IMG/VR virus record: IMGVR_UViG_3300014202_001529
Length of the DNA: 64,000 nt
Direction: 5' to 3' (one strand)
Source of the DNA: a virus
Part shown: piece after piece, positions 1-61,206 of the stretch
How the letters are laid out: the number at the start of each line of letters is the position of its first letter
Numbering within the stretch: position 1 is the stretch's first letter
Notes under the pieces: model-generated
What the model saw: the letters and a program-made list of their open reading frames with translations, nothing else
Databases searched by the model: none
What the model was told of the DNA's origin: nothing
Made by a program: the position numbers and the translations under genes

Positions 1-1225
1 AGGTGTCGCTTTTGGCGGTTCTGCCTTTTTTGCTTTTGGCGGTTCTTCCTTTTTTGCTTTAGGTGGTTGTGTGTTTTTTGCTTTAGGCGTCGTCGCTTTT
101 TTTACCTTTTTTTCAGGTGCAGGCGCAGCAGCCGTAGCGGCTGAACCGGATGGCTTTTCTTCCATTGCTGCAAGCTGAGCTTTAGCCGTGGCAATGGACT
201 TTTCCAGGCTTTCCCGTGCTGCGCCTTGAATGGCAGGATTACTCAACCCCTTTTCCATTTTGGCTATTTTGTCTTGCAATGTTTGCTTATCGTTCATCAC
301 AGATGTATTTTAAGTTTTTTAATATTTATGCAAATTCCATTGCCGTTTCCAATGCCTCAATCGCACTCGCCAAAGAAGCCTTATCGTCCCCTTCAGCAAA
401 TTCCATTGCCAGTTGCAGCGAACTGATTGCGGCCTGCAAATCGTTGTCTGCTGCTTCCTCTTCTTCCTCTTTCGCCTGTGCTTTTTTGATTTGTGAGAAC
501 GGGACTGGTTCCCAATTAAAATCCAGCTCTACACCGTTGCCCATTCGCCCGCGAGCGGCGTTTATTTCCTTCATCGAAAGATAACCCCATTCCGCGTTCT
601 GGTCGTCACCTCCCAGGATGGCAAAGCCAAACAGTTTGTCTTTTCCGTCCCATTCCGCGATGTACCAATCCGAATTGTCAATAAAAAAGTGCGCGTAGAT
701 GATTTTTTCCGCTGCCGGCACGCTTTCCGTAGCGTACAGTGCTGGAATGGATTCTACCTGCACTTTGAGTGGCGCCAGTACGTTGTCTGCATAGCCTGGT
801 TCTGCATTTTCCAGAATGATTCTGGAAACAACCCGCTGTTGTATTTTGGGCATGAACCGGGAAAGCTTTTCCCCAAAGGTGAACGGCTCCGCGATTTGCG
901 CCTGAACCTTTGTGTCTACTTCCACCACTTCGCCGGATTTGATTTCCGTCACCCGCCCGTAGATGTCGCAGGTGTGGATGCCGTCCAGACAGTCGAGCAA
1001 GTAGTTGAGTCTTGAGAACTCCGTGACGCGCTGTGAAACGTTTCGGCTGCTCGCTCTTTCTTTTTCTTTTTCAGCCTCAACAATTGCCAGGCGACGCTGA
1101 AATTCTTCGGGAGATAATAAGATAGAAACGTCATCTGACAGTTTATTTAGCCGGATTTGGTATTCTTCCTTAACATGCGTAAAATCATCAAAAACGGTGA
1201 GTTTGTGTCGAGACAGGATACGTTC
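1..1225. repeat. Copy 1 of a 1225-bp exact overlap marking circularity
   Basis: aggtgtcgcttttggc at 1 and 62776; duplicated ORFs are offset by 62775 (216 vs 62991). Confidence 0.97.
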
Positions 1226-4200: not shown

Positions 4201-5101
4201 TTGAAGGATTTTCGATGAAATAGTCTTTCCAGTCGTTGCTCTTGATGGTCGCTTTGTCGTAAACCCCTTGCTGCACTTGATAGGTGACCCACACCGTTAT
4301 TTCTTCCGGCGAGATGGTGTAGTAAGCGGTTTGCCCACCTGGTGTTTTGTATTCTACTCTTTGATTATACCGCAGGATGGTTTCCCCCAAACATTCTAAT
4401 CCCTCTTCGCAAGTGCCGCCGCGATTGCTACGTTCAGAATTCTGCTCTTTGGTCGCCTTTACAATCTGCGTAATTTTGGTGGCAAGTTGCACCTGCTTTT
4501 CAACCGGCGCTGCGGGCTGCATGGCTGCCGGCGTTTCATCCGGTTTCACATGCTCAAAGCGCATTCCGTTTCGGATGTGTGATAACCTTTTTATAGCATC
4601 TTCCAGGGACCCTTGAACTTCTGGTCGCGGTTTTCCAAATGCGTCGGTCAATTCCTTGCCGGTATTCTTGTTGTGGGTTACAATTTCGCCCAATACTTTG
4701 CCAGGGTTGTCGAGGAAGTATTGGCCGGAAAATGGGCTTGCGCTTTTTTGGGTAATAACCGTAGCAAATGTTTCTGGCACCGTTAATTTTGCGGACTCCG
4801 TGGTTGCTGTGGTGACAGGTATGATAGGTAATTTTTCAATATACCAATACTTCGTCATTAAGCTTTCTACTGCTTTGGCCAAGTTTGAGTTGCCGTCCAA
4901 TAGCTTCGTTCCAACAATATCGGTAATTTTATACTTTGATCTATTTTGGTAGATATTTGCAACTTTTTTACCGCTTCTATTGAACAGTTCTATATCGCCT
5001 TTATCGTTCAGCGCTACTGTCCATCCGTATTGAGATACAGTTTCCAGCAGTTGCGCATCAATTGTGCTGACTGGTGCAGCGGGTGTTTTTAGCTTTGCCA
5101 T
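326..5101 (-). CDS. Large SNF2/SF2 helicase (DarB / large-polyvalent-protein type) with C-terminal DUF2958-like domain
   Basis: Motif I AFDVGVGKT, motif II IIVDEGHN, motif III LTATPFTN, motif V GTSTMREGVDLQ, motif VI QLMGRIWRFGN. C-terminal HFFIDNSDWYIAEWDG...FG...AEWGYLS is typical of DUF2958. Start taken at MAKLKTP. Confidence 0.85.
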   Translation of the reverse strand: MAKLKTPAAPVSTIDAQLLETVSQYGWTVALNDKGDIELFNRSGKKVANIYQNRSKYKITDIVGTKLLDGNSNLAKAVESLMTKYWYIEKLPIIPVTTATTESAKLTVPETFATVITQKSASPFSGQYFLDNPGKVLGEIVTHNKNTGKELTDAFGKPRPEVQGSLEDAIKRLSHIRNGMRFEHVKPDETPAAMQPAAPVEKQVQLATKITQIVKATKEQNSERSNRGGTCEEGLECLGETILRYNQRVEYKTPGGQTAYYTISPEEITVWVTYQVQQGVYDKATIKSNDWKDYFIENPSKDQWLSWWEQELVAYNGQEWVPESLYYSGNIYRNLRILEDNKAAIVEMIGEGGYDLQVNKMQAAKPKQLLITLDETKRLYLSPFDKIWDDVEIKQIANGYAADEGEQLSIWSFFKNWMDQLPNSDFVFERKQTNAQDIYNRWILKINFPRNLYSEAEKASIKRNTTIIGQRLFDRFIIEQLAEVDKAKIAGLWNSLRNNYVDIAYHRIPVGFSVNRSFKGGKLAIRPAQREGVAFMGGRGRGIVAFDVGVGKTLTAILGIMDGIEKGLFKRPMIVVPQKVYHKWIAEISGIKAEKAMTINGKSIKAGQIISEGILPQLKVNDYYNLGGKYLGKATQGSITLTVEEYSITMVTYEGLELIGFTEKIENKLSQRLAEALSQGESGRSKAIIEGQADTWIDTALKDTKVTIDEMGIDCIIVDEGHNFRNLFMEVRGDIGRDGERQRKDFFSGGSSSPSTRAVKLFMLNAYVQDQKNLRNTFGLTATPFTNRATEIYSMLSLFDYHGMKDFDVYNLAQFCSTFIDETLEDAWTTAGQFAIKAVIRGYNNLPILQSLVRRSVNYKTGEDANIHRPEKVVLPLKTDEKGIPLDFQYIVDTVLPPAPLQMQWLKAAAQFAAAENDRENPIAQAYPPNKKGIVDGRTLIAMNAARMATFSPYAVRYGDVSVGYPGEIPADEFVKNSPKILYACECIRSVKAHHEKNKTPISGQIIYSDRGKEWFPTIKEYLVKNVGFSDKEVAEFHAGISADRREKIKEAFLEGEIKVIIGTSTMREGVDLQKNGSVIYVCYLDWNPTDLHQLMGRIWRFGNKYGFVRIVVPLIENSSDIFTWQKLSEKMARLNSVWTKTDGTKAFEESELNAEELKRGLINDPEAIVKYEVKQEEEFLKSEALLAWSAINQLNNVVSQRDNFQATFQKMEGWLLEAKTNPRIDAYTEEDKQSGREKVAQMLAKYETEPDTEKAMMAFIRAYANVSYGSYEKGSTLDTFRKQREKLKQVQERILSRHKLTVFDDFTHVKEEYQIRLNKLSDDVSILLSPEEFQRRLAIVEAEKEKERASSRNVSQRVTEFSRLNYLLDCLDGIHTCDIYGRVTEIKSGEVVEVDTKVQAQIAEPFTFGEKLSRFMPKIQQRVVSRIILENAEPGYADNVLAPLKVQVESIPALYATESVPAAEKIIYAHFFIDNSDWYIAEWDGKDKLFGFAILGGDDQNAEWGYLSMKEINAARGRMGNGVELDFNWEPVPFSQIKKAQAKEEEEEAADNDLQAAISSLQLAMEFAEGDDKASLASAIEALETAMEFA

Positions 5102-5108
5102 AAGTCGT

Positions 5109-5333
5109 TTAGTCGAGGTGAGACAATTCCATTTCCACTTCGGCAATAGCCGTTTGGATGCTTACCGGCTCTTCCCGGGTCATTAGGTTGTTGGTGAGCA
5201 TGCGCTCCAGCTCTGCATAATTGCCAGTACGCAGCGCACACACTTCCGGATGGGTTTCACAATGCAGCTTTTCTACTTCCTGCTTAATTTCATCCTGGAG
5301 CACCTTCAGCACTCCGTTGATCATGGCGTCCAT
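5109..5333 (-). CDS. Small helical hypothetical protein between methylase and helicase
   Basis: 74-aa ORF filling the gap; in frame with the upstream methylase, separated only by TGA-CCT. Confidence 0.6.
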   Translation of the reverse strand: MDAMINGVLKVLQDEIKQEVEKLHCETHPEVCALRTGNYAELERMLTNNLMTREEPVSIQTAIAEVEMELSHLD

Positions 5334-5336
5334 AGG

Positions 5337-6071
5337 TCATTTTTTTTTGAAGACAACAATATCCGTTTGCACGTCTGTGGCTTCAAAGACGCGCTTAGGC
5401 AGCCGGTATGCATCCAGCATTTCAGCCTTGGCTAAAATGTCGCGTTTGCAGTCGTTTTCCTTCCCGTCTATAAAGCTGGAAGGGATGATGTAAACCAGAA
5501 TCCCGCCAGGTAGCAACAGGTCCAATCCGCGTGTGATGAAATACTCCACGTAGTTGGCAGCTTTGGTGATCTGCTTTTCGGCAGCGGTGCCTTTGCCGGT
5601 GAAATCGCCATACGGCGGATTCCCGATAACAAGATTGTATTCCATTTTCCAGGTTTGTGCAACGCCGGTGCGATCGGCAAACAAAGCGTTGAATGTTCCT
5701 AAGCGAATGTCGAAGGTTGGGAAATTGGCTTTGGCTATGCGGTAGCTTACTTCGTCCAGCTCGATGCCGGTGACGGATGCTTCCGGACTGAAATAGTGCA
5801 AAATCCGGCCTATTCCGCAAGATGGCTCTAACACCTTGCCACCGGTGAACCCGTGGTGATGTGCCAGACCAACCATTTTTTCGACAATCGGGATCGGCGT
5901 GTAGTATTCATACAGGCCACGTTCTTTTTTCAGGTCGGCTTCAAAGTTCCACATGCCGCCAAATCCGATGTACTGATTAACATAAGCCAGTTCGCTGATG
6001 GTGTACGGTGGGGTTTTGCCCATCACGAACTGCGCTATTTCCTGGTTGAGTTTGTAGGCGCCCTGGTTCAT
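5337..6071 (-). CDS. N6-adenine DNA methyltransferase (DarB-like methylase domain, stand-alone)
   Basis: Motif I VLEPSCGIG, motif IV GNPPY, EYYTP near the N-terminus. Start MNQGAY overlaps the upstream stop (ATGA). Confidence 0.88.
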   Translation of the reverse strand: MNQGAYKLNQEIAQFVMGKTPPYTISELAYVNQYIGFGGMWNFEADLKKERGLYEYYTPIPIVEKMVGLAHHHGFTGGKVLEPSCGIGRILHYFSPEASVTGIELDEVSYRIAKANFPTFDIRLGTFNALFADRTGVAQTWKMEYNLVIGNPPYGDFTGKGTAAEKQITKAANYVEYFITRGLDLLLPGGILVYIIPSSFIDGKENDCKRDILAKAEMLDAYRLPKRVFEATDVQTDIVVFKKK

Positions 6072-6754
6072 GTTGTTGCCATTTTGGAGGTGAAAATGTT
6101 GATGCTGGTGCCCCCTTTCTTCTTCACCCAAAACCAAATGCCAACAATGATGAGCAGCACCAGAATGATGATGAAAATGGTAGAGCCTCCGCCGCCACTG
6201 CCTGGTTCCTTGATTTTGGAGCCAAAGAGAAAGCTCCAAATCTTTTCGAGCAGGTTGGGCTTGTCTATGAAGATTTCGTAAGACATTGGATTGAGCGCCA
6301 AAAGGCCAAACAGGCTACCCCCAGGCGCATCTTCCGTTTGTCCGTACCCTACAATGCTATCCTTGCCGATAGCAGGATTGTAAAATCCGCCGCCTTCGGG
6401 GTTGTACTCCAGCTTCAGCACATTTTCCATCATAAATTTGATGTTGCGCCGGTTGATTTGCTCTCCAACCAGTTTGGCAACGGGTTGCAGTTTTTCACCC
6501 TCTACATACTCCGTACCATTGGGTTGGATGAAGAAAATAAGCGTAGGGTCGGTTTTGACTTTTAGCTGCGGGTGCTTTTTTGCATCGGCCATCGGAAAAG
6601 ACCAGTAATCAATGCCAGAAAGCATGGCTTCGTCTTGTGGAAAACTTTCCATGCCTGCCCAAATTTCTTCTGAGAAATTGTGACCATCTGCCCAGTATTT
6701 TTCCCAGTCTTCTGTGTAGACGGCCAGAAGGTAATAGTACTTTAAATCACTCAT
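6068..6754 (-). CDS. Membrane-anchored protein with possible degenerate thioredoxin-like domain
   Basis: PTLIFF segment resembling the thioredoxin cis-Pro strand; C-terminal hydrophobic run IFIIILVLLIIVGIWFWV followed by KKK; no CxxC. Confidence 0.45.
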   Translation of the reverse strand: MSDLKYYYLLAVYTEDWEKYWADGHNFSEEIWAGMESFPQDEAMLSGIDYWSFPMADAKKHPQLKVKTDPTLIFFIQPNGTEYVEGEKLQPVAKLVGEQINRRNIKFMMENVLKLEYNPEGGGFYNPAIGKDSIVGYGQTEDAPGGSLFGLLALNPMSYEIFIDKPNLLEKIWSFLFGSKIKEPGSGGGGSTIFIIILVLLIIVGIWFWVKKKGGTSINIFTSKMATT

Positions 6755-31738: not shown

Positions 31739-32244
31739 GACACCGATCGTTTTTTAAACCCAAATAAAATCAACACCAACGCCAGCAACAGCACCCCTAT
31801 TACCGCAAGCACCCAAATCACCGTCCGCAAGTTGCCGACCTTCTTTTCCAAGGCGACAACCTGCTTCTGGCTTTCGTTCCTTGCCTCTTCGGCAAGGTGA
31901 ATCCGGGCTTTATCTTCAAAGTAGATCAGACTATCTTGGCACTGATACTCGACCTGAATGTGCCGAACGGGCACTTTCATCTCCACCGGCACTAAGATGA
32001 CTTTTGGCGCGTTTGCCGGCGGGCAAAGCGCTTCGATAGTGTCCCTAAGAGTTTCGCCCGGGACGGTTACTTCAATTGTATCCTTACGCTCGCGCACAAC
32101 TGCGGGGAGCTGCTGGCATGGGAAAAGCTCTGCGCACTGCCGCGCTTTCTTCGACATGTCTACGCCACATGCGGCAGTACAACAGAGAAGCAGTAACCAA
32201 AAGGCTCTGCTCATACAAAAAACAGCAGGATATATGTTGTTCAT
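31735..32244 (-). CDS. Putative unimolecular spanin-like lipoprotein
   Basis: N-terminal hydrophobic stretch ending TAA-C, beta-rich middle, C-terminal TM (VIWVLAVIGVLLLALVLILFG) followed by FKKR. Confidence 0.5.
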   Translation of the reverse strand: MNNIYPAVFCMSRAFWLLLLCCTAACGVDMSKKARQCAELFPCQQLPAVVRERKDTIEVTVPGETLRDTIEALCPPANAPKVILVPVEMKVPVRHIQVEYQCQDSLIYFEDKARIHLAEEARNESQKQVVALEKKVGNLRTVIWVLAVIGVLLLALVLILFGFKKRSVS

Positions 32245-33077
32245 AGTGTTTCAGTTAATTCTGTTTCAAAAAGGCCGAATTTGGCCGGATGCACAGGTAG
32301 TTCATAATTCCAGGTCAACACTTCTGTTTTCCTGAAATTGCCACCAGTAATGCCAAGGCGCATTTCCACTTCCTTTTGCTGCCAGCCTTCTTTTCTGACC
32401 GCATCGGTCAACGCGGCGTTGTGGTAGCTGCTCATCAGGAATTTGCCCTGCATGGTGGAAGCCTTATCAATCAGGGCTTCAAACTGGTTTTGCGTGTACC
32501 CAGAGTAATGCCCTTGCCTGGCGCCCACATAAGGCGGATCGAAATAGAAGAACGTATCGGCGCAGTCCAGCTTATCCACAATCACGAGCGCGTCGCGGTC
32601 AAAAACCGTCACTTGTCGCAGCCTGGCCTGGTAGTGCCGGAAAGCGTTAATGCGGTTGCGGATGCCCACTGCTGGCGTCCAGTTGTCATGCTTGTTTTGT
32701 CCCCATCGAAACGTTGCAGCAGCTTCGCCGCCAAAACTCATATTGATGGCCACCCAGGTTGCCCAGGCACGGGTCACGTCGTCGTGCTGGTCCGGATCGT
32801 TGTAGATGTCGCATGCTCGCCCGTGTGTGTGCTCATCGTGGATGGTGCCTTCCAGCATTTCGGCCAATGCCTGGCTTTTTGTGGCGACCACCAGGTAGAA
32901 ATTGGCGATGTTTCCATTCGCGTCGTTTAGGTACTCGGCAGCGGATGGCTGCTTGGCAAAAAACAATGCAGCCCCCCCTGCAAAAGCCTCGACATAGGTT
33001 TTGTGCTCCGGGATCATCGGCAGCATGGTGGGTACCATGCGGGCTTTGCCCCCGTAATATGTGAGGAGGCTACGCAT
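32241..33077 (-). CDS. D12/Dam-class N6-adenine DNA methyltransferase
   Basis: YYGGK, YVEAFAGGAALFF, LNDANGN, FYFDPPY. Confidence 0.92.
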   Translation of the reverse strand: MRSLLTYYGGKARMVPTMLPMIPEHKTYVEAFAGGAALFFAKQPSAAEYLNDANGNIANFYLVVATKSQALAEMLEGTIHDEHTHGRACDIYNDPDQHDDVTRAWATWVAINMSFGGEAAATFRWGQNKHDNWTPAVGIRNRINAFRHYQARLRQVTVFDRDALVIVDKLDCADTFFYFDPPYVGARQGHYSGYTQNQFEALIDKASTMQGKFLMSSYHNAALTDAVRKEGWQQKEVEMRLGITGGNFRKTEVLTWNYELPVHPAKFGLFETELTETL

Positions 33078-33429
33078 TACGACGACGTGGCATTTCAATA
33101 TCTAAACGAAAATCAAAGTCTTCGGCCTCTTTCATGTGCTGGATGAATAACCCTATCAGGATGCGGAGGCAATTACCCGCCCTGCTTTCTTTCCCGCGTC
33201 GGGGAGCCAATTTCCCAACCAGATATTCAGTATTTGTGTTGGCTAAAAATTCCGGAAAGCTGTTGCCAAATGCGCGAAACGACGTTGCGTATTCGCCCCA
33301 GTCGGAAATGAGGGCTATATTGCCCTCAGTGTCGTAAAGGAAGATGCCGTAGGACGCTTCTGCATCCAAAATGCGGACGGATGCGCCCGGCGCTGTTGTG
33401 ATTTGTGATTTGCTGCTGGTCTGGCTCAT
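33070..33429 (-). CDS. Hypothetical protein
   Basis: 119-aa ORF. Confidence 0.65.
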   Translation of the reverse strand: MSQTSSKSQITTAPGASVRILDAEASYGIFLYDTEGNIALISDWGEYATSFRAFGNSFPEFLANTNTEYLVGKLAPRRGKESRAGNCLRILIGLFIQHMKEAEDFDFRLDIEMPRRRNA

Positions 33430-38908: not shown

Positions 38909-39418
38909 TTAATACATTGTCCCGGCAATAATATCCGGATTGTGGTTTTCTTTCATCCAATCCTCAAAGGTTTGCTCTGGCGTTTGATCGTCTTCCCTGA
39001 TGATGTGCTCTGTCCACTTCTCACGCGGCAGCTCTGTAATTTCTTCGTCGCCTTCAAACTCAACCAAATCCATCCCGGTCACGGAACAGTAGGTTTGGAT
39101 CGCTTCAATGATTGTTCTTGCGGCAATCCATGTTTTTTCGCCATCGAAGGCGAGTTCAAAGATTTTTAGGTCGTTTATGCCTTTTACCGTTTTACTGGTA
39201 ATAAATACAATCCTATCCGATTGTAATTCGACTTTCAATCCTTGTTCTTTTGCTCTTTTTATTATTTCATCAAAAACATTTTTGAGTGGAATAGCACTTA
39301 TGTGCGGTGTGTTGATGTTGTCCACAAAAAAGCTGTTATCCATCATATCTGATGAAAATTCTTTTTGTGGAAATTCTGATATTTTACGTCCTGGCATGAT
39401 TTTTGAATTTTTATTCAC
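38909..39418 (-). CDS. Hypothetical protein
   Basis: 169-aa ORF. Confidence 0.65.
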   Translation of the reverse strand: MNKNSKIMPGRKISEFPQKEFSSDMMDNSFFVDNINTPHISAIPLKNVFDEIIKRAKEQGLKVELQSDRIVFITSKTVKGINDLKIFELAFDGEKTWIAARTIIEAIQTYCSVTGMDLVEFEGDEEITELPREKWTEHIIREDDQTPEQTFEDWMKENHNPDIIAGTMY

Positions 39419-39455
39419 CTTTTTATAATAGAGTTAATTGACAAGGATAGATTAG

Positions 39456-39692
39456 TTAGGTGTAATGCTGACGAAGGAACTCGACAATGGTTTTGCTATC
39501 AACTTGTTTAGCACCTGCCTTTATTGCCTTATCAATCATTAGACCTTTAACATCATAATGTGGCTGATGTTTGTTTCGTTTGTTTTGAAACCAGCATTTG
39601 TTTAACCCAATACTTTGAGCGAATGAATGAAGATTTGGTATAGTATCAGCCACTAAATGACACCAACCATTTTTCGGAAAATCAATAAGCAC
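39456..39692 (-). CDS. DUF4031-family protein (cassette ORF)
   Basis: WCHLVADT...LHSFAQSIGL...WFQ...PHYDV. GTG start 10 nt inside the core site; stop lies within the inverse core. Confidence 0.8.
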   Translation of the reverse strand: MLIDFPKNGWCHLVADTIPNLHSFAQSIGLNKCWFQNKRNKHQPHYDVKGLMIDKAIKAGAKQVDSKTIVEFLRQHYT

Positions 39693-39695
39693 TAC

Positions 39696-39827
39696 ACCTA
39701 ACACTGCATACCCGACAATGGGGGTTGACGTGCTATTTTCGGCATTTGTGCTATTATCAAAGTTCAGTTCTAAATTCATCGTTTGTGCTTTTAATTCCCC
39801 CACTGCGGGTATGCTTTTACGTTGGCT
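39696..39827. repeat. attC-like hairpin site B (132 bp)
   Basis: ACCTAAC-N3-GCATACCCGACAATGGGGG ... CCCCCACTGCGGGTATGC-N6-GTTGGCT, with one unpaired base in the stem. Confidence 0.75.
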
Positions 39828-39834
39828 GCAAGTG

Positions 39835-40188
39835 CTACCAGTGTTTATAAAACAATCTGAATAAGAACTTGTAAAGCCATTGTGGTTTTCTGTAATGGAA
39901 TGGTCTTTCACCTGTTTTTCTGTAAGGATAAGTCCAATGATAGCCTACCATCCACTCAAATTTTTTTTGCCTAAATAACCAATTAACTTTTTCTTTAAAA
40001 GATAGTTTGTATATCTGACAAAAACTTTCATCCCATTCATCTTTTTCTTCATTAAAATCTCCCTCCAAAGTTTGAAAATAGCAAACTTCTTTTTCATAAA
40101 TACATAAGCCTTGTAAGTGCAAATCATAGTGGTTGCTTATAAATTTGAATTTAGTTTGACTGTATGGTATTGTGTTTATTAATTTCAT
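39835..40188 (-). CDS. Hypothetical protein (cassette ORF between two attC-like sites)
   Basis: AT-rich 117 aa; stop is 6 nt before the inverse core. Confidence 0.7.
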   Translation of the reverse strand: MKLINTIPYSQTKFKFISNHYDLHLQGLCIYEKEVCYFQTLEGDFNEEKDEWDESFCQIYKLSFKEKVNWLFRQKKFEWMVGYHWTYPYRKTGERPFHYRKPQWLYKFLFRLFYKHW

Positions 40189-40221
40189 TTTGACATTTTT
40201 TTGTTATTAACCGCCCCTGAC

Positions 40222-40352
40222 AGCCAACATTGCATTGGCAAAAGCAGGGCTGACGTACTAATTTAAAACATTTGCAATCCTATTGAGCATCGGTAAGTAA
40301 TTGAACATTAGTGCTACTATCCCCTGCCTTCGCCAATGCTTCAACGTTATGC
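40222..40352. repeat. attC-like hairpin site A (131 bp)
   Basis: AGCCAAC-N3-GCATTGGCAAAAGCAGGG ... CCCTGCCTTCGCCAATGC-N6-GTTATGC; same geometry as site B. Confidence 0.75.
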
Positions 40353-40451
40353 GGAATGCGAAAGGGCGGCAACTTCAATATCGTGGTTTGTGAGCATTCG
40401 AGTAAATTCATGTAAAATTATTTTAAAATTGTGCGAATCGGCTAACTGGTG

Positions 40452-40670
40452 CTATGCAAAAAGAATAAGTTGCTCCCCAACAGCGGGGATTACTTCTAAT
40501 ATCTCCGGCTCTGGAATACCGTATTTTTCACCCGCAATGGTAACAGATGCTTTTGGCGGGTATCGTCCAACGCGATCCTCGCAGATGTCTTCTATTTCTG
40601 CTGTCACTTGCACCGTTTCTCCAAGTGCAAAGTCCTCATACAAAAACCGAATTTTCTGCCCCTTTTTCAT
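40452..40670 (-). CDS. Small hypothetical protein
   Basis: 72-aa ORF. Confidence 0.6.
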   Translation of the reverse strand: MKKGQKIRFLYEDFALGETVQVTAEIEDICEDRVGRYPPKASVTIAGEKYGIPEPEILEVIPAVGEQLILFA

Positions 40671-40730
40671 CTTTTAGGAATTAGTTTTAAGCACCTATAA
40701 ACAAGTTAGTCGCAATCAGAAAGATAATCC

Positions 40731-40952
40731 CTATGCAGGTAAACATTGATAGTCTGCTAACGCTTTGAAAACGTCGTAAGAAGATGTATTTAGACTAAGA
40801 TTTCGGTCCTTGCTTACTCTTATGACGTCATCCGCTTTTAAACGTCTTTTCCCTTCGGCGTTTTTAACTTTTTCTGATGAATCTTCGTATCGCCAGTCTC
40901 CGTATTTCGCTACATATATGTCGCCGTTCTTTATTGTCGCTGAAAATGTCAT
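40731..40952 (-). CDS. Small hypothetical protein flanked by TAAACAAGTTA direct repeats
   Basis: Repeats at 40698-40708 and 40991-41001. Confidence 0.55.
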   Translation of the reverse strand: MTFSATIKNGDIYVAKYGDWRYEDSSEKVKNAEGKRRLKADDVIRVSKDRNLSLNTSSYDVFKALADYQCLPA

Positions 40953-41006
40953 ATTTTTTGATTTAAAGATTAAAAAATAATATGCCAGCGTAAACAAGTT
41001 ACAACG

Positions 41007-41375
41007 CTACTTTACAAACTCCGATTCAAGCATTCCTTTGTCATGTTCAAGTCGATTCTGAAACATTTTTTGAAAGGTTTCCCAAATATCATCGGTGTAC
41101 GATATTTTAATAACGTTGCGCACTTCTGCGAACGTCTCAAAATCGGTATCTTGAATAAATATGCAGTTGGTGTTGTTCACTAAAATGTGTTCACCGCTTT
41201 TTAAGTCGCAACTAAAATAGGTTTCCTTAAAATAAGGATAGCCAAAGTATTTTACAAAAAAGCCGTTTTCAACACGAGCAATTTTCCATTCAAAATTATT
41301 TTCATCCAAACAGCTTATTTCTTCAATAGTCTGTTCAGGTGTTGGATACATTTCTGGTTTTAAACAAAAAATCAT
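41007..41375 (-). CDS. Hypothetical protein (AT-rich)
   Basis: 122-aa ORF. Confidence 0.6.
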   Translation of the reverse strand: MIFCLKPEMYPTPEQTIEEISCLDENNFEWKIARVENGFFVKYFGYPYFKETYFSCDLKSGEHILVNNTNCIFIQDTDFETFAEVRNVIKISYTDDIWETFQKMFQNRLEHDKGMLESEFVK

Positions 41376-41397
41376 TTCGTTTCAATTTAAATGCCGT

Positions 41398-42072
41398 TCA
41401 AAAAATAAACACCACTTCCTTAGCTTCAATAAATTCAACAGCTCCGTTGTTTTCATAAAACCATACAGGGTACTTATCATTGCTGTGCGGTATAACAGAT
41501 GTAGTCAACCCGAATTTATCATTTACAGTTACCGCTTTCATTGTTAAATTGCTAATGCAAAGTCTTTTTGATAAATCAAGATTCGGAGCTTTATCCACGG
41601 GGTAATAGGTACTCCCAATCAGCATGTGTACCCAATATTGCCCTTCTTTATACGTAATTTTAAAAACTCTTTTACCAGATACATCGCCGTATGCAATTAT
41701 ATCTCTTGCTGAGACATCGGCAGAATAAAAATGAATAATTTCTTTTTCAGGAATCCGTTGCATCAATTTATACACCTCAAAATCTTTTGAGATGTGGCCA
41801 ACAATCCCAAAAATATTATTTGCCATCCCTTTTTCAAGATGCTCAATGCACTTGCCATAAGGTTTAGACGTCAACGGATCACCATCGTACCAAAGCCCGC
41901 CAAAAAGATAGAACCCTGTTTGGTTTTTGTTGTTTTTTCTCATTTTTTCGCGATGTTCCATATCGCAATTTGAATGATGAATACAAACCCAATCACGAGT
42001 ATTGTCATTATTCAGGCGAATAATTGTACCGTTAGTGATTTTAAAAAAATCAAAATTGATTATTGCTTCCAT
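41398..42072 (-). CDS. Hypothetical protein (AT-rich)
   Basis: Start taken at MEAIINF. Confidence 0.65.
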   Translation of the reverse strand: MEAIINFDFFKITNGTIIRLNNDNTRDWVCIHHSNCDMEHREKMRKNNKNQTGFYLFGGLWYDGDPLTSKPYGKCIEHLEKGMANNIFGIVGHISKDFEVYKLMQRIPEKEIIHFYSADVSARDIIAYGDVSGKRVFKITYKEGQYWVHMLIGSTYYPVDKAPNLDLSKRLCISNLTMKAVTVNDKFGLTTSVIPHSNDKYPVWFYENNGAVEFIEAKEVVFIF

Positions 42073-42076
42073 CGTA

Positions 42077-42349
42077 TTAATTGGTGTAGTCTCCGACGTT
42101 AGGAAATCCAAGAAAAACATTTGATTGAGGTATATCAACATCAAAATTTGCCTTTGCAGATTTAATGGCATGGTCTGAAAAAATCAAATCAGAAACCCAA
42201 ATCTTTAGATTATAGCCATCAATGATTATATGCCCTATTTCTGGGTCTCCTTTAACTTTAAAAACAGCTTCTTGAAGGGAAAAAAGTTTCCCCCAGCCGC
42301 CCCAACTTTTGCCATCAAATGTCTTTGCTGAAATTTTATAATGCTCCAT
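42077..42349 (-). CDS. Hypothetical protein
   Basis: 90-aa ORF. Confidence 0.6.
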   Translation of the reverse strand: MEHYKISAKTFDGKSWGGWGKLFSLQEAVFKVKGDPEIGHIIIDGYNLKIWVSDLIFSDHAIKSAKANFDVDIPQSNVFLGFPNVGDYTN

Positions 42350-42367
42350 TTGTATTGTAATTAATTT

Positions 42368-50265: not shown

Positions 50266-52308
50266 TCATGCTCGTAATGCAACTTTTTCCGGTAACCGGG
50301 TCAGCTCCGCCACAAGCGCTTCCGCCCAGGCTTTCACAAAAGCCGGAACAACCGAGTTCCCAATGAATTTTTTCTGATCGGCCTGGGTGCCTTTCAGAAC
50401 GTAAGAAGCCGGGAATCCTTGGATGATCTTCATTTCTTGCACCAGCAACATCCGCATTTTGATGTCGCTGATCTGGTATGCCGCCATGAAGATTTTTATC
50501 TTCCTCATGGCCGGTGAATCCTCCGGATACACTATGATGGCGATGCCTTGCTGATCACCTTCAGCAGTGTTAATGCTAATCAGGTAGGGTGGACGTTTGT
50601 CTGTTCTCGCGATAAGCGTGAACAATGGTTCATTTATACTGCCACCGGCGCAGGTATACTGCGGGTTCAGCACGTAATGGTACTTCCTGTTGGCCGTGAT
50701 GGTTGGCAGTGGCGCTTCAATAGAAGATCCAACATTGTCGAAATTCGTGCTCAGGATAAAAGGCTTGCACGTGACCAGGTTGGTTTTTGGCACGGTGAGC
50801 AATGCGCCCATTGGTCCGTCCACATCCACCAATTGCCCGCCGCCGCTGAAATCCCGGGCGATGAACACCAGGCCAAGTTTGTTTTGGGTAGTGATTGTTG
50901 GGCAACAATCGTCTAACTCCTGCATATTCAAGCCTTTGCCGTAGTATTTCATCAAAACCACGCCGATCCTGTCCTTAGTGGTCAGGGTACTGCATGGGCC
51001 ATTGATCTCCACAAGGTTCTCGCCGGTGCCGTGATACTTCAGCATGATCACTCCAGTCCGTTGCTGCACGGTTAGGGTAGGGCAGGGTTGATTAGGGCTT
51101 GAACCAGGGCTTACCTTCCCGTTTTCATTTGTGGAATTCCATTTGGTTATAAACACAGACGCATGACTATCCGTTGTCGTGAAAGCACCAGTTGGTCCAT
51201 AAATGCTTATACACTTACTTGCAGGGGCGCCGGAGTAGTATTTCATCAGGAAGGAATCATCGCCATCTGCGACAAACTTAACCAGCCCTGCATAAATCCT
51301 TTCGAGCGTTTTTTCAACGAGCGGTTTGTCCCGGTCAAAAATGCTTTGCCCTTCGTTACTCAAGTCTAAGCATTCCTTCACCGCTTTCCATGGGTGCAGC
51401 TTTGTTCCGAATAGCATTTGCTGGCCGTTGCCCGCTGCCTTTTGTGGGTTTTTCGCGTGCGTAGCTTCCGGCCAGATCATTGGAAGCCCTGGCTTGGCAA
51501 AAATGCCAAACAGACGCCGGCGGGACGTGTATGCACCATAATTGGCGGAGTCCTGGATGGTCCAGTCATCCGTATAGCCATAACTATTTATGTGCTGCCG
51601 CCACTTTAACCAGCTCCGGCCTTTCGTCAAGCTTTCCGGAATCCAGTGTGGCTCCAACCGGTTGGTTTTCTTGTTTATTACTAAGGGGCAATAATCATTT
51701 CCGCCCTTAGTAACTACTTTCGGAATCATTGGCCCCCAGGCCATAAACTCCCGTACGTTTTCGATTTGGACATAATCCGGATCAAGTACTTCAATATAGG
51801 GGTAAAGGTGTTCTGCTAATGTACGGCTATCTGCATCCCGACTTTTTCCCCCTTTAGCCTGGGAAAAGTTGGTACACTCAAGCGAAGCCCACAGTATCAC
51901 CTTCGCTTTTGGGTGCAGGGCCCGATAAATATCTACCAACCGCTTCAACCGGACCATTTCCGGGCTAAGGAAATGGATGCCGTGATAGCGGAATCCGTAC
52001 ATCCGCGTAATGTCCTCGTTAAAGTGGACAACATCCGGATGGTTTGCCCAATGCGATGCAATTGCCTTCGCATCGTGGTTGACGCAGGCTATTATTTTGC
52101 AGACCTTTCGGCCCAGCTGGTTCATGGCTTCGGCAAAGCCTTGCGTGACTCCACCGGCACCGCAAAAGAGGTCAATTATTAACAGTTGGGTATTGTCGTC
52201 CTGAATGTAGAGCGGAGATTGCTTCGGTCTTTTAAAGACCGTATTTTCAAGCCTTTGCGCCGTTTCTAAGGATAAGTATTCCATATCTGTGCTGTTTTGT
52301 AAGCTCAA
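50266..52308 (-). CDS. C5-cytosine DNA methyltransferase with expanded repetitive target-recognition region
   Basis: IDLFCGAGG, ASLECTNFS, IENVREF, GAYTSRRRLF, IGNSVVP; repeated PxxT(L/I)TxxxR/K units. Confidence 0.92.
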   Translation of the reverse strand: MSLQNSTDMEYLSLETAQRLENTVFKRPKQSPLYIQDDNTQLLIIDLFCGAGGVTQGFAEAMNQLGRKVCKIIACVNHDAKAIASHWANHPDVVHFNEDITRMYGFRYHGIHFLSPEMVRLKRLVDIYRALHPKAKVILWASLECTNFSQAKGGKSRDADSRTLAEHLYPYIEVLDPDYVQIENVREFMAWGPMIPKVVTKGGNDYCPLVINKKTNRLEPHWIPESLTKGRSWLKWRQHINSYGYTDDWTIQDSANYGAYTSRRRLFGIFAKPGLPMIWPEATHAKNPQKAAGNGQQMLFGTKLHPWKAVKECLDLSNEGQSIFDRDKPLVEKTLERIYAGLVKFVADGDDSFLMKYYSGAPASKCISIYGPTGAFTTTDSHASVFITKWNSTNENGKVSPGSSPNQPCPTLTVQQRTGVIMLKYHGTGENLVEINGPCSTLTTKDRIGVVLMKYYGKGLNMQELDDCCPTITTQNKLGLVFIARDFSGGGQLVDVDGPMGALLTVPKTNLVTCKPFILSTNFDNVGSSIEAPLPTITANRKYHYVLNPQYTCAGGSINEPLFTLIARTDKRPPYLISINTAEGDQQGIAIIVYPEDSPAMRKIKIFMAAYQISDIKMRMLLVQEMKIIQGFPASYVLKGTQADQKKFIGNSVVPAFVKAWAEALVAELTRLPEKVALRA

Positions 52309-52344: not shown

Positions 52345-53364
52345 CTAAAAAGAACCAGAAGATTCGCCGCTGAATGCGCCCTGGGGCCGTTCCCAGCTGT
52401 CCACAAAGATGGGGGAGGAGAAGTCCGACATGGCTTCGTGCTGCCAGCGTTTCAGGTTTGCATCGGTGAGAAAGGATGTGCCGCGTTGCGCCCGCGAAAA
52501 AATATCTTCTTTGGCATACAGTGTGTGCTGCAACTGCACCTCCATGCGGCCAATTTCCAGCAACTTTGTGGGCGCCAGTTCGGCAATGGCTGCCCAGTTG
52601 TTGGGGCTGGAGAAGATGCACAGTTGGCAGGAGCATCGAGACCAGCCTAATTCGTAGCAGGGATGGGGTTGGATTCTGTTTTTGGCGATAATGTCCCACA
52701 CCTGCCGCTCCGACCAGTTAATGATCGGACGCCATTGCAGCACCTGGCGGGATTGGCTCGTTGCTCGGTATGGCTCCAGCTCTTCGTATTTGGAGCGGGC
52801 TGCACTTTCTTCCCGGCGCTCGCCGGTGCAAACCACGAAGCGGCCAGTCTTATAATCCGGGTGATTAGTGATCACTCTACTAAGCACATCAATTTTTACC
52901 ACGGCGCTGCACCAGCGCGTGCGCAGGTCCGCAGTCACAGCTGGGAACTTCATGCGCGTGCTGTTTCCGGCACGACTTTCTAAGCGGGTGTGCTTTTTGC
53001 CTGCGGTTTCCTGGTACAGGACATCCTGCAAGCCCTCGTTTTTCCGGAACATTTCCCTCCGGATGCCACCATCGCGGTAAGAAAACAGGATCGGTATGTC
53101 GAGCGCATCCGCAAAAGCCTGGCAATAGGAGGGTGTGCATGGCCAGTCGAACAGGTTTTGCCCATCACCATCCACATCGTGGTGATGCAGGGTGATTCTT
53201 TCCTTAGTAACTCCCAGGGAAAGCAGGTGCAAAACCATTGCAACGCTGTCTTTTCCCCCGGAAAAAGCGACCAAAAACCGCGTTTCAGTGTTGTCAATCT
53301 CCTTAGTAATCCCTGCAGGGATTGCGGATGTTGTCCACGGAGCAACCACAGGTAGGTGCAGCAT
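52345..53364 (-). CDS. PAPS-reductase-family (PP-loop) protein
   Basis: VAFSGGKDS, RWCSAVVK, GERREES.AR, GWSRCSCQLC. Confidence 0.85.
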   Translation of the reverse strand: MLHLPVVAPWTTSAIPAGITKEIDNTETRFLVAFSGGKDSVAMVLHLLSLGVTKERITLHHHDVDGDGQNLFDWPCTPSYCQAFADALDIPILFSYRDGGIRREMFRKNEGLQDVLYQETAGKKHTRLESRAGNSTRMKFPAVTADLRTRWCSAVVKIDVLSRVITNHPDYKTGRFVVCTGERREESAARSKYEELEPYRATSQSRQVLQWRPIINWSERQVWDIIAKNRIQPHPCYELGWSRCSCQLCIFSSPNNWAAIAELAPTKLLEIGRMEVQLQHTLYAKEDIFSRAQRGTSFLTDANLKRWQHEAMSDFSSPIFVDSWERPQGAFSGESSGSF

Positions 53365-56642: not shown

Positions 56643-57818
56643 ATGTTTACGTATCCAAGCATAAAAATCGTTTTGTTAAAAAACGACGTAAACAAAAAAA
56701 ATGAATGCCCGATCTACCTTCAGTTTATTCACCAGCGCAGGACGTTCCGGCTTTCGCTTAGAAAATTTGTTCCTCTTGCATCCTGGAATGGAGTGCATCC
56801 AAAATATTTGAAAGACAAGGGACCCGATAAGCACCCAAATGCCCGGCAACTAAACATCTTGCTGGCCGGGATGCAGAACAAAGCCCAGGAGATCATCCTG
56901 GCATACGAAATTGAAAATAAGGCCATTACCTGGGAGCTTTTCCAACAAGAAATGAACCCGGGCGCAGCGAAGCCGCAAACGTTCTACGACTTTCACATGT
57001 TATATGTGGAAGAGCAGCGGAAAGAGGGCACCAAGGTATCAACGCTGGAAACCTATAGTTCCAAGCTAAAAAAGCTCCGAGAGTTTGCTCCGGAGCTGAA
57101 CATCGAGGATGTGACGGCAGAATTTGCCAGAGAGTATATTTACTGGATGAAGACGGTAAAGGGAAATGTCCCAAACACCATCTACAAATCCTTCCAATAC
57201 CTTACTGCTGTTTGCAGGCTTGCGGTCCGGATGAAAGCATTGAAGGAGTATCCACTCGAAGGAGTGGCTGTCCGTAAGGAAGTTAGAGATCCAAGCAGGT
57301 TGAATCAGGCAGAAGTGGATAAGTTGATGGCGTTATACCGGTCGGGAGTGTTGCCGGATAGCCGGCAGAACGTTCTGGGGCAATTCCTGTTTGCCTGTCA
57401 CACTGGTCTGGCATTTGGAGACATCCAGGTATTGGATTATGCAGACATTCAGGTTCATACCGATGGAACGTTGTACGTTGAAAAAGACCGCAACAAAACG
57501 GACATTCGGTTTATCTGTCCGCTTTTACCTGAAGCTTTGGAATTGATTGACTATCCTAACGAAGGGAAAGTTTTCCGTGGAATATCGAATAAAAACACGA
57601 ATGACTACATACAGGATACCTGTAAATTCGTTGGCATTCAAAGGCATGTCCGGTTTCATACGGCACGGCATACTTTCGGAACGATTGCCATCAACAAAGG
57701 CATACGACTGGAGGTTGTGCAGAAAATGATGGGGCACGCTAAAGCTTCCATGACTTCGCACTATGCGAAGTTAAATACTTCCACAATAATTGAAGAAGGT
57801 CTAAAACCGTCAAAATGA
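56643..57818 (+). CDS. int: Tyrosine recombinase / integrase (Bacteroidota IntDOT-like)
   Basis: N-terminal arm-binding CPIYLQF...R; SAM-like middle; TGLAFGD (Arg-I replaced), RNKT, FHTARHTF, MMGH, HYA. Confidence 0.95.
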   Translation: MFTYPSIKIVLLKNDVNKKNECPIYLQFIHQRRTFRLSLRKFVPLASWNGVHPKYLKDKGPDKHPNARQLNILLAGMQNKAQEIILAYEIENKAITWELFQQEMNPGAAKPQTFYDFHMLYVEEQRKEGTKVSTLETYSSKLKKLREFAPELNIEDVTAEFAREYIYWMKTVKGNVPNTIYKSFQYLTAVCRLAVRMKALKEYPLEGVAVRKEVRDPSRLNQAEVDKLMALYRSGVLPDSRQNVLGQFLFACHTGLAFGDIQVLDYADIQVHTDGTLYVEKDRNKTDIRFICPLLPEALELIDYPNEGKVFRGISNKNTNDYIQDTCKFVGIQRHVRFHTARHTFGTIAINKGIRLEVVQKMMGHAKASMTSHYAKLNTSTIIEEGLKPSK

Positions 57819-59762: not shown

Positions 59763-60310
59763 TGTATTTTGCCGCAGCACATTTTATACTTCTTGCCGGA
59801 GCCACAAGAGCACGGCTCATTTCTGCCAACTTTAGGGGTTGTGCGGACCTCTACTGCCCGTTCGCAATGCCGGGGTTTTCGGGGTGTGCCAAAATCGAAA
59901 AGTCGAGGAGGCAGCATTCCATAGTCCAGAAGCGTTGGTGGAAGCGTTATTGGCATTACTGAAGCTGGCATTCTTCCTCCAATAAAGCCAGTTCCCTCTA
60001 TTCCAATTTCTGAACAATAGTCTTTTACGACAACAAATGGATCTTCATCAGACCAAACATCCGGCTCCTCCAAAATACTTTTTATGCACTTCCCTTCTGC
60101 GCTCACCGTAATGCCGTTGCTGTCGCTGCCGATAAGCACATAATGATAGTAGTCTTCATCTTCTTCGTACACGAGGTGCGGTTTCCTGTCATCATTGCAA
60201 GTTCCCGATCCCTCCAGGAAGCGAAAACAGAACTTTGTGCGTTCGCACAATTCCAGAAAGGTCAGGGTATGATCCCAGTCTTTTGAGATGATGATGTCTG
60301 GTTGTCTCAT
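59759..60310 (-). CDS. SEC-C motif protein
   Basis: C-terminal [21 protein letters not shown]. Confidence 0.85.
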
Positions 60311-61170
60311 TCGTTGCAATGGCATTTACTTTCCCTGTCCATATCCCCGTTGAATCCTTCCAGCGCGCACGCGGTCTCAATCTCCGGGAAGAGTGACAAA
60401 ATATTTTGTGATTGTCTGTACTTATCCTGTGCTCGCCGAAATGGCTTTTTCGTGGCCGCTGCTATTTTCGCGATGGTATATCCATCCCGGTCAAAAACAT
60501 AGCCGCCTTCTTGCTCCAGTTCCCATTGCTGCCATTGGTCCGCAACTTGTGGGTTTTCGGCAATAATGGTCATGCGCTTCCGGAGCGACTTTTTCCAACA
60601 CAGGTCGCAATTGCCTTCATAATCCTTTAGCTGAAGGTCGTAGTCCTGGCCTGCCCAAAAATTCCGCACTTGCATTTCCCAGGTCGGAAACCAGTCAATG
60701 AGCGGATAGACCTTTGTGCTATCCTTTCTGTTTGCCCGGCCAGCTTCATCAATCCGAATGCCGATAGCCGTATTATATTTGCCCCCCCCCATCAATTCCT
60801 TACAATATTTTCCAATGGGTCGGGTTTTTAATTCCCGGTTGCAGTGTGGGAATTCTTTGTTCGGAATTCCAAATTTTCTGATCATCGCCTCAAACGGCTC
60901 GCCTTTCCTGGAAGCCGTTTCAAAATCAACAATGCGATACGATACGCCAATACCTCTTTCCTGATTGATCACGGCTTCTATCCATACTAAATTCAGCCCC
61001 ATCCGTTTGTCGCACTCATCAACGAATTCCAGGGTTTCTTCCCGCTCTTTGCCGGTGTTGGCAAAAACAAACGCCTTTGGCATCTCCGGATAGTGCTTCT
61101 GGAGCATGTGGCACATGTATGCACTGGAGCGGCCACCGGAAAAGCTTATGATGAGTGGAGTTGCTTGCAT
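60307..61170 (-). CDS. Second PAPS-reductase-family (PP-loop) protein
   Basis: [45 protein letters not shown]. Confidence 0.85.
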
Positions 61171-61191
61171 GGGCACAAATATAAACATAAA

Positions 61192-61206
61192 TTGCGTTTT
61201 ACGCAA
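61192..61206. promoter_or_regulatory. Operator palindrome TTGCGTTTTACGCAA
   Basis: 8 bp from a minus-strand TATATTTG box (61176-61183). Confidence 0.8.

Follow-up and report, generated by a model that had tools for sequence, protein, structure and literature searches.

How do two small genes, each preceded by a long hairpin, come to lie side by side in viral DNA, and what moves them? The question is raised by positions 39455-40348 of the window, by which we mean the whole 64,000-nucleotide stretch of DNA analyzed in this study. Integrons are the standard example of how bacteria gather and reshuffle genes, and an initial annotation had read the region as integron-like gene cassettes with attC-like sites, captured by a virus with the help of a host-encoded recombinase. 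We find that the region is very probably an array of two cassettes and belongs to an integron-like system that Bacteroidota phages and prophages carry. The genes around the array are all on the minus strand. Its parts and the associated features are given below in the order of gene sense, with both shared triplets counted in cassette 1.

39455-40348, minus strand: proposed two-cassette array with all its parts (hairpins, boxes and genes)
40346-40362, minus strand: box in front of hairpin H2, which marks the far end of the array (gene sense ...CATTCCGCATAAC), with the putative crossover triplet AAC at 40346-40348
40226-40348, minus strand: core of hairpin H2, 123 bp, from folding and the covariance model
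39821-40348, minus strand: cassette 1, made up of the H2 core, the GTT box, ORF A and the ...CAGCCAAC box
39835-40188, minus strand: ORF A, 117 aa, a conserved family with no assigned function
39700-39823, minus strand: core of hairpin H1, 124 bp, from folding and the covariance model
39455-39823, minus strand: cassette 2, made up of the H1 core, the GTTAGGTGTAGTGCT box, the DUF4031 gene and the AGCATTACACCTAAC box
39456-39704, minus strand: DUF4031 gene, 80-82 aa, with an uncertain start (GTG at 39704 or 39692)
39398-39457, minus strand: array end, the terminal AAC and an attI-like leader (TAATCTATCC...), 57 nt to the ATG of the next gene
38909-39418, minus strand: ORF169, at the place held by a Xer-like integrase in related arrays; not a recombinase
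56643-57818, plus strand: the sole tyrosine recombinase of the 64-kb window, a classic phage integrase of 391 aa (phrog_1 integrase, 1.1e-43)

The identity of the DUF4031 gene was confirmed (Pfam PF13223, 3.9e-19; phrog_4887), and the array is AT-rich as described, with a GC content of 0.37 versus about 0.46 for the whole window. The two ORFs had also been called promoterless, and neither a sigma-70-like promoter nor the Bacteroidota TAnnTTTG motif was found on the minus strand between 39455 and 40450. ORF A has no Pfam or PHROG match and is a member of a family with 26 protein clusters at E <= 2.6e-25. Its nearest homologues are cassettes in other arrays, while remoter ones are located in tight phage operons without hairpins. 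Both the ORF A and the DUF4031 families exist as cassettes and as ordinary operon genes. Public calls of DUF4031 genes, with sizes of 103-117 aa, reach up into the hairpin loop, and the annotation of such regions is often wrong in this way.

The window appears phage-like, judging from its replication, anti-restriction and integrase genes and from its synteny with a relative, L216; PHROG and Pfam scans of 20 of its larger ORFs revealed no capsid, portal or terminase. As the source contig measures at least 230 kb, the setting of the array is probably a prophage or an island in a Bacteroidota genome. No match to positions 39300-40800 was found by blastn among 50,697 phage records, and no close relatives of the flanking proteins ORF169 and ORF72 were found in viral contigs. 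An Rfam scan of the window returned no family and a tRNA search no gene. The search of sequencing runs returned no RNA run and none that spans the whole stretch.

The two imperfect hairpins of the initial annotation were recovered with the geometry it described. On the plus strand they share one plan, AAC, 3 nt, GCAT..., about 100 nt, ...ATGC, 6 nt and GTT. H1 reads AAC (39700-39702), ACT, a 19-nt arm, and after the loop an 18-nt arm, TTTTAC and GTT (39821-39823); H2 reads AAC (40226-40228), ATT, an 18-nt arm, and after the loop an 18-nt arm, TTCAAC and GTT (40346-40348). The stem of H1 consists of 9 + 2 + 6 pairs with one mismatch and a one-base bulge at A39715, the unpaired stem base noticed before. 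H2 has an 18-bp stem and a 72-nt loop, and the two A.C mismatches of this stem on the plus strand are G.U/G.T pairs on the minus, gene-sense strand. By eye, the extra bases of the sites form a 3-nt bulge beside AAC, on the 5' side of the better-folding strand. Such hairpins were unconvincing by themselves until a family was found, since 18-nt arms with three mismatches occur by chance in an ungapped inverted-repeat scan (3-9 matches in shuffled sequence).

A search of Bacteroidota genomes had been proposed as a check. Using a pattern that contained the shared hairpin ends only, we found these ends and the hairpin length conserved in viral contigs (at least 120) and in bacterial genomes (68 stretches), with nearly all of the matches listed measuring 122-126 bp. 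The genomes are nearly all from Bacteroidota, including Chitinophagaceae, Flavobacterium, Pedobacter, Runella, Niabella, Algoriphagus and Hymenobacter. When 42 diverse copies were aligned, 12 of 17 stem pairs showed compensatory changes, and two stem positions were G.U on the gene-sense strand in at least half of the copies; the loops carry three to four repeats of an AGYACAAAAG-like motif. The covariance model built from these relatives scores H2 at 116.6 bits (E 4.5e-22) and H1 at 116.1 bits, and the next-best match in the 64 kb reaches 20 bits. It detected 293 sites in 100 viral loci among the matches listed, and 142 in the genomic loci. Run on this alignment, nhmmer gave 267 matches in 121 sources, was judged less sensitive and was dropped. 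AAC and GTT are set by the search pattern in the alignment set, and the independent check is their retention in 264 of 286 lower-scoring and independent model matches. The sites are mostly grouped on one strand, in arrays with as many as 14 members or more. Neighboring sites are separated by spacers with a median of 595 bp (191 spacers), and in 154 of these the longest ORF is on the gene-sense strand. Among the listed matches in the 120 viral loci, the cargo consists chiefly of N6/N4 DNA methyltransferases (58 loci), C5 methyltransferases (19) and Mom-like proteins (13).

The strand on which the sites fold was also examined, as the initial annotation had suggested folding the bottom strands. 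The better-folding strand is the gene-sense strand, which was more stable in 218 of 260 distinct elements with DNA parameters and in 177 with RNA parameters. The count of mismatch types in the stems is a clearer measure of this bias than stability under RNA parameters: 431 G.T pairs were found on the gene-sense strand versus 185 A.C, which are G.T on the other strand. A bias towards G.U pairs in gene sense is also compatible with a role in mRNA. If the sites are written as is customary for integrons, with G|TT as the crossover of the top strand, the plus strand of the window is the top strand and the better-folding strand is the bottom one, as in integrons. The genes are nonetheless inverted with respect to the integron layout when the sites are written in this convention.

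The initial annotation also described complementary sequences at the two ends of each cassette, and these were confirmed exactly. For the ORF A cassette, GTTGGCTG (39821-39828) pairs with CAGCCAAC (40221-40228) over 8 nt. For the DUF4031 cassette, GTTAGGTGTA (39455-39464), which contains the TAA stop codon, pairs with TACACCTAAC (39693-39702) over 10 nt, and the pairing continues to 15 nt (39455-39469 with 39688-39702). For the family as a whole, the first 14 nt past the GTT of an element were set against the 14 nt that precede the AAC of the next element, read as reverse complement. In 108 viral and 63 genomic pairs of neighbors, a stretch of about 12 nt behind one hairpin is inverted and complementary to a stretch of about 12 nt ahead of the next. 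The viral neighbors match at 70-94% of positions across these 12 nt, with a mean of 5.73 of the first seven positions versus 3.24 for each of the controls in the viral loci (own flanks, reversed pairing and random pairs); the independent genomic set gave 6.03 of seven for neighbors and 3.17 for controls. At position 8, the box that follows a hairpin nearly always has G and the box that precedes the next hairpin has T, which makes another gene-sense G.T pair. As the flanks of neighbors are complementary, each gene is bracketed by its own inverted boxes (GTTRnnnGCAGTnn ... nnATTGCnnnYAAC). By analogy, such inverted boxes are what site-specific excision and insertion within GTT/AAC yield in integrons, so that reading the complementarity as a cassette hallmark is justified throughout the family. 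In the DUF4031 gene the boxes overlap the first and last codons. Comparison of cassette and non-cassette versions of a gene shows that the ends of the coding sequence were themselves turned complementary, which bears on the origin of cassettes.

The extent of the mobile unit is delimited by the occurrence of the same genes in other surroundings. A metagenome contig (L209) encodes a DUF4031 protein 99% identical to that of the window. The DNA of the two is near-identical throughout the cassette, starting at the AAC in front of the H1-type core and stopping at the AAC behind the stop codon, with unrelated sequence on both outsides; past the second AAC the contig has another hairpin where the window has the leader. 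Three other loci (L213, L214 and L215) share the DUF4031 cassette together with its upstream neighbor and part into three different continuations right after AAC. A DUF4031 gene 85% identical to that of the window has neither hairpin nor boxes (L212). The H1 core was also found as a 94% identical copy in L015 and as a near-identical one in L209. With regard to cassette 1, L205 shares the H2-type core, both boxes and ORF A and diverges past AAC, and L204 shares only the ORF A unit from the GTT box to AAC, after a different upstream core. Contigs from sludge, wastewater and lake water, from three studies, align over 39455-39823, over 39455-39811, where the alignment stops at the contig's own end, and over 39454-39728; non-matching sequence sets in at 39455, or 39454 for the lake run, and at 39823. 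Further metagenome contigs cover the H2 core alone. The comparison of relatives for precise junctions, called for by the initial annotation, thus places the breaks of identity within the AAC/GTT triplets 39455-39457 and 39821-39823.

The breaks in L205, L209 and the metagenome contigs show that the mobile unit is a hairpin with its downstream gene and that the point of exchange can be placed within 3 nt. The initial annotation had assigned each hairpin to the gene before it, and this has to be reversed. The DUF4031 cassette (39455-39823) is therefore complete and no third hairpin is missing. A screen of the stored arrays for one gene in different contexts returned one informative pair, in which the upstream hairpin is the same and the downstream one different. 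The syntenic relative L216 is without both cassettes; the whole of 39169-42367 is non-homologous there, hence it provides no exact junction. An H2-type core 91-95% identical to that of the window was found in ten other loci examined and in L205, in eleven different combinations of box and gene. A single crossover at AAC does not account for these contexts of the H2 core or for the core swap in L204. Such swaps would presumably need exchange at the GTT end (for example, if the other strand were used occasionally), recurrent assembly of cassettes around a shared core, or conversion between cores.

The arrays have a polarity, which is recognized from their end elements. The last element possesses an orphan partner box downstream, without a following hairpin, in 12 of 15 viral and 14 of 29 genomic arrays, and no such box was found in the control region. 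An upstream orphan box accompanies the first element in just 2 of 14 viral and 7 of 33 genomic arrays, and these few cases look like hairpins missed by the model. The window obeys the same polarity: the DUF4031 gene ends in AGCATTACACCTAAC, an orphan box at 39455-39469 with no hairpin afterwards, and the box before H2 matches the 5' flank consensus of the family, nATTGCnnnTAAC, and has no complementary partner further upstream in gene sense, like the first elements of other arrays.

A gene for a Xer-like tyrosine recombinase of 267-297 aa was found by ORF clustering in 10 of the 120 viral loci, among the matches listed, always directly after the last cassette and on the same strand. In eight of these ten loci the last cassette ends in ...YAAC and is followed by an AT-rich leader of about 40-60 nt before the integrase ATG; the leader reads TAnTATATGTA or a close variant in six of the eight. 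A related gene is present in about 3 of the 68 genomic loci, on the opposite strand. The integrase is linked to the arrays only by co-occurrence, in fetched stretches of up to about 15 kb, a minority of which contain the integrase. The enzyme is nearest to XerA and XerD (NCBIfam XerA_Arch, 199 bits; PDB 4a8e and 5hxy).

The window itself contains no array-type recombinase, and no recombinase of any kind within 17 kb of the array. The initial annotation was right that no integron integrase is present, as the sole tyrosine recombinase is the 391-aa phage integrase, which reaches only 31.8 bits against the array-integrase profile and is not of the array-associated type. The 57-nt leader before ORF169 partially resembles the attI-like motif TAnTATATGT. 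ORF169 itself has no match to the array-integrase profile, Pfam or PHROG, and its C-terminal half alone is conserved in L216. Since the dedicated recombinase is absent from the window, the array would be either a relic or serviced in trans. Nothing supports the host-encoded recombinase that had been proposed, and in related arrays the candidate at the array end is phage-borne.

Gain or loss of cassettes is seen in cultured phages. Relatives of the array integrase, 32-35% identical, are encoded by the Polaribacter phages Freya and Leef and the Cellulophaga phage Ingeline, and in Freya_10 and Leef_1 the integrase gene is preceded by divergent sites that the covariance model picks up. Freya_1 and Freya_10 are 99.8-100% identical nearby save for 4.9 kb, which begin exactly after ...TTTACAAC, beside the integrase leader. 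Freya_9 and Freya_10 are one 304-bp cassette apart, located between ...TACCAAC and the integrase leader. Other isolates carry nested subsets, and parts recur at 97% identity in Danklef phages. In the last cassette of Freya_10 the box rule is unclear. The paper describing phages of the Freya and Leef type makes no mention of the cassette differences.

These data bear on three other explanations of the locus. According to the first, which we regard as very improbable, the cassettes are of the canonical integron kind: they came out of a host integron, their hairpins are ordinary attC sites, and a bacterial IntI moves them. The AAC...GTT cores, the imperfect hairpins and the cassette hallmark are all in its favor, and recombination by IntI1 has been demonstrated for five out of six phage attC sites (Qi et al. 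2023, PMC9892861). However, none of the recombinases found beside the arrays is an IntI: they match TIGR02249 in two stretches with 145-167 bits, below the cut-off of 265, and lack the IntI-specific insertion, since IntI4 (2a3v) aligns to them in two pieces around it. Moreover, the hairpin lies upstream of its gene and the genes point at the attI side, which is the reverse of integrons, and the hairpin family is nearly confined to Bacteroidota and their phages. What stands of the initial annotation is thus the integron-like, excisable cassette with attC-like folded sites, while the sites are at most putative attC sites in the canonical sense: the better-folding strand is the gene-sense one, and the bulge is beside AAC and not in the 3' arm.

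The second explanation takes the hairpins to be mRNA structures that act between early genes in processing, insulation, termination or the like, and ascribes the shuffling to homologous recombination between similar hairpins, as has reportedly been proposed for the PeSL modules of T4-type phages. The location between co-oriented genes, the conserved G.U pairs on the transcribed strand and the repeats of the loops would all suit such structures. Against this, the breakpoints fall within a 3-nt triplet even where the neighboring hairpin cores are unrelated in sequence; in addition, pairing between boxes that have an entire gene between them would serve no obvious purpose in RNA, and the arrays have polarity, an attI-like end and a recombinase gene. 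We hold this explanation to be very improbable, though the hairpins may have a second, RNA-level role alongside recombination. That the hairpins are MITEs or other selfish palindromes landed between genes, as terminal inverted repeats with conserved ends and an H2-type core in a dozen contexts might suggest, is exceedingly improbable, because the stems co-vary rather than copy one master sequence, no target-site duplication is found at 39455, 39823 or 40348, the flanks pair with those of the neighboring element and not with their own, and the unit common to different genomes includes the gene.

Under the preferred reading, a cassette array of an integron-like phage system, each cassette in gene sense consists of a hairpin of about 123 bp (AAC-G...T-GTT), a box of about 12-15 nt, one gene, and the reverse complement of the box ending in AAC. 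We infer that a tyrosine recombinase acts on the folded, single gene-sense strand, with strand exchange within the AAC triplet, and that a cassette is excised as a circle. In this circle the box at the cassette end would meet the box after the hairpin and lengthen the stem, and this would require the two boxes to pair, hence their covariation. New cassettes would enter at the attI-like site beside the recombinase gene. On balance, we favor the view that Bacteroidota phages own an analogue of the integron, with a Xer-like recombinase, an attI-like site and long hairpins that recombine as folded single strands, and that it stores and exchanges single-gene cassettes, many of them for anti-restriction methyltransferases.

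Cassette arrays without an integrase are already known from phages. A screen with IntegronFinder and HattCI identified CALINs in 17-21 phages, among them Polaribacter phage P12002L, whose cassettes carry methyltransferase genes, and the phage sites were treated as stray integron components (Qi et al. 2023, PMC9892861). By the operational definition of a CALIN (at least two attC sites and no integrase nearby), the window, with two attC-like sites 403 bp apart and no integrase nearby, is similar. The P12002L CALIN resembles the arrays described here in having attC-like sites between co-oriented methyltransferase genes of a flavobacterial phage, and the P12002L_attC1 primer (TGCTAACG...TGTTAGGCG), located between the methyltransferase genes gp36 and gp35, bears the signature of the window family; a TAACG...TGTTAG signature is present in at least three of the four phage attC primer sequences of that paper that were compared. 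Our covariance model gave weak matches only on P12002L. Neither in PMC9892861 nor elsewhere in the literature did we find an account of the dedicated Xer-like enzyme, of the attI-like end, of the 123-bp hairpin family with its long loops, or of isolates that differ by cassettes. Phage CALINs are published, while a dedicated phage hairpin-cassette system with its own Xer-like integrase is apparently undescribed.

If this reading is true, phages possess a device parallel to the integron with a different recombinase and a different site design, which would explain the fast exchange of small accessory and anti-defence genes. Recombination on folded single-stranded sites would then be known from a second, independent case. 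The long-standing question of how genes become cassettes could become directly testable, as the same families occur as cassettes and as operon genes.

Several known systems resemble this one in part. The PeSL modules of T4-type phages, reportedly described by Arbiol, Comeau and Krisch in 2010, are said to be small accessory genes bracketed by a repeated stem-loop, for which a shuffling of modules was proposed. PeSLs are said to be short promoter-plus-terminator motifs thought to act via homologous recombination, whereas the elements found here have no promoter motif, form 123-bp hairpins, display site-specific breakpoints and are associated with a recombinase. Xer/dif, the elements that exploit Xer and archaeal XerA are related through the enzyme, which is nearest to XerA and XerD. 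Xer sites, however, are short double-stranded inverted repeats with a 6-8 bp spacer, in place of the long hairpins and cassette-specific boxes of these arrays.

The closest resemblance is to integrons and CALINs. As in those systems, the cassettes hold a single gene each, apparently lack promoters and stand in arrays; the sites are folded, imperfect hairpins with AAC/GTT cores, the crossover apparently falls within the GTT/AAC triplet, and the first bases of a cassette are complementary to its own inverse core. Integrons are further matched by the probable insertion at an attI-like site beside a tyrosine recombinase gene and by the preferential folding of one strand. There are also differences. 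The recombinase here is Xer-like and without the IntI insertion, and in viral loci its gene is co-oriented with the cassette genes. In integrons attC is 3' of the gene and the genes read away from attI and its promoter, whereas here the hairpin precedes the gene and the genes read towards the attI-like, integrase end. Extrahelical bases in the 3' arm of attC are replaced by a 3-nt bulge beside AAC, and the complementarity of the boxes extends over 12-15 nt with a fixed G.T position. Finally, the carriers are Bacteroidota phages, and their cargo consists mostly of DNA methyltransferases.

The loops of the two hairpins (cores 39700-39823 and 40226-40348, H1 and H2 respectively) and of their relatives carry three to four copies each of an AGYACAAAAG-like motif, recurring every 19-20 nt or so along the gene-sense strand (alignment A2, columns 40-115). 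These repeats are candidate sites that might be bound by an accessory protein. Cores of the H2 type, 91-95% identical to H2 itself, adjoin a wide variety of cassettes and flanking sequences in related loci (L117, L026, L032, L103, L102, L051, L063, L141, L018, L151 and L205). Among these loci, a downstream gene is common only to L063 and L151, and ORF A, the 117-aa gene of cassette 1, is common to L205 and the window. Exchange or reuse of the hairpin cores seems to take place without regard to the genes beside them.

The DUF4031 protein of cassette 2 is 103-117 aa long in public gene calls (P0027-P0031), because the start was placed at an in-frame ATG within the hairpin loop (window 39705-39800). 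A length of about 78-82 aa is indicated by the Pfam domain and by a 79-aa homologue outside any cassette (L212). The gene begins and ends with codons that are overlapped by the two complementary boxes of the cassette (window 39692-39704 and 39455-39469), and the corresponding codon positions in L212 (2990-3240) are without complementarity. The recombination boxes of this cassette appear to have been shaped out of the coding ends themselves.

Both cassettes are absent from the syntenic relative L216. Between the DnaB gene and the ORF169 homologue, L216 possesses a single short element of the AAC-hairpin-GTT form, whose 14-bp stem is perfect (5763-5840). It is followed by GTTGGCTAT, which is similar to the box that comes after the window's H2. 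The gene beside the array end is located as follows.

38909-39418, (-), ORF169 in the window; counterpart in L216 at 6001-6270

ORF169 starts 57 nt past the terminal AAC of the array, a position occupied by the integrase start in related arrays. Its conservation in L216 is limited to the C-terminal ~89 aa, with 79% nucleotide identity between the two from window 39168 downwards, and its N-terminal half is unique. By this comparison, ORF169 looks chimeric.

Homologues of the array-associated recombinase were found in three bacterial-genome loci; in each, the homologue and the cassette genes lie on opposite strands.

L168 5363-6535, opposite strand, recombinase homologue
L191 18-704, opposite strand, recombinase homologue
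L184 3341-4628, opposite strand, recombinase homologue broken into two ORFs

Being split in this way, the L184 homologue may be decaying.

The window is also rich in DNA-modification and anti-restriction genes, which encode a 1606-aa DarB-like methyltransferase-helicase, a D12-class Dam methylase, a 680-aa DNA methyltransferase and two PAPS-reductase-domain proteins.

326-5146, 32241-33098, 50266-52308, 52345-53364 and 60307-61206, DNA-modification and anti-restriction genes

The attC primers listed for Pseudoalteromonas phage PH101 in a supplementary table (TATAACG...CTTGTTAT; Qi et al. 2023, PMC9892861) have the TAACG...TGTTR signature in common with the hairpin family of the window. Judging from the signature in these primers, the site type may extend past phages of Bacteroidota.
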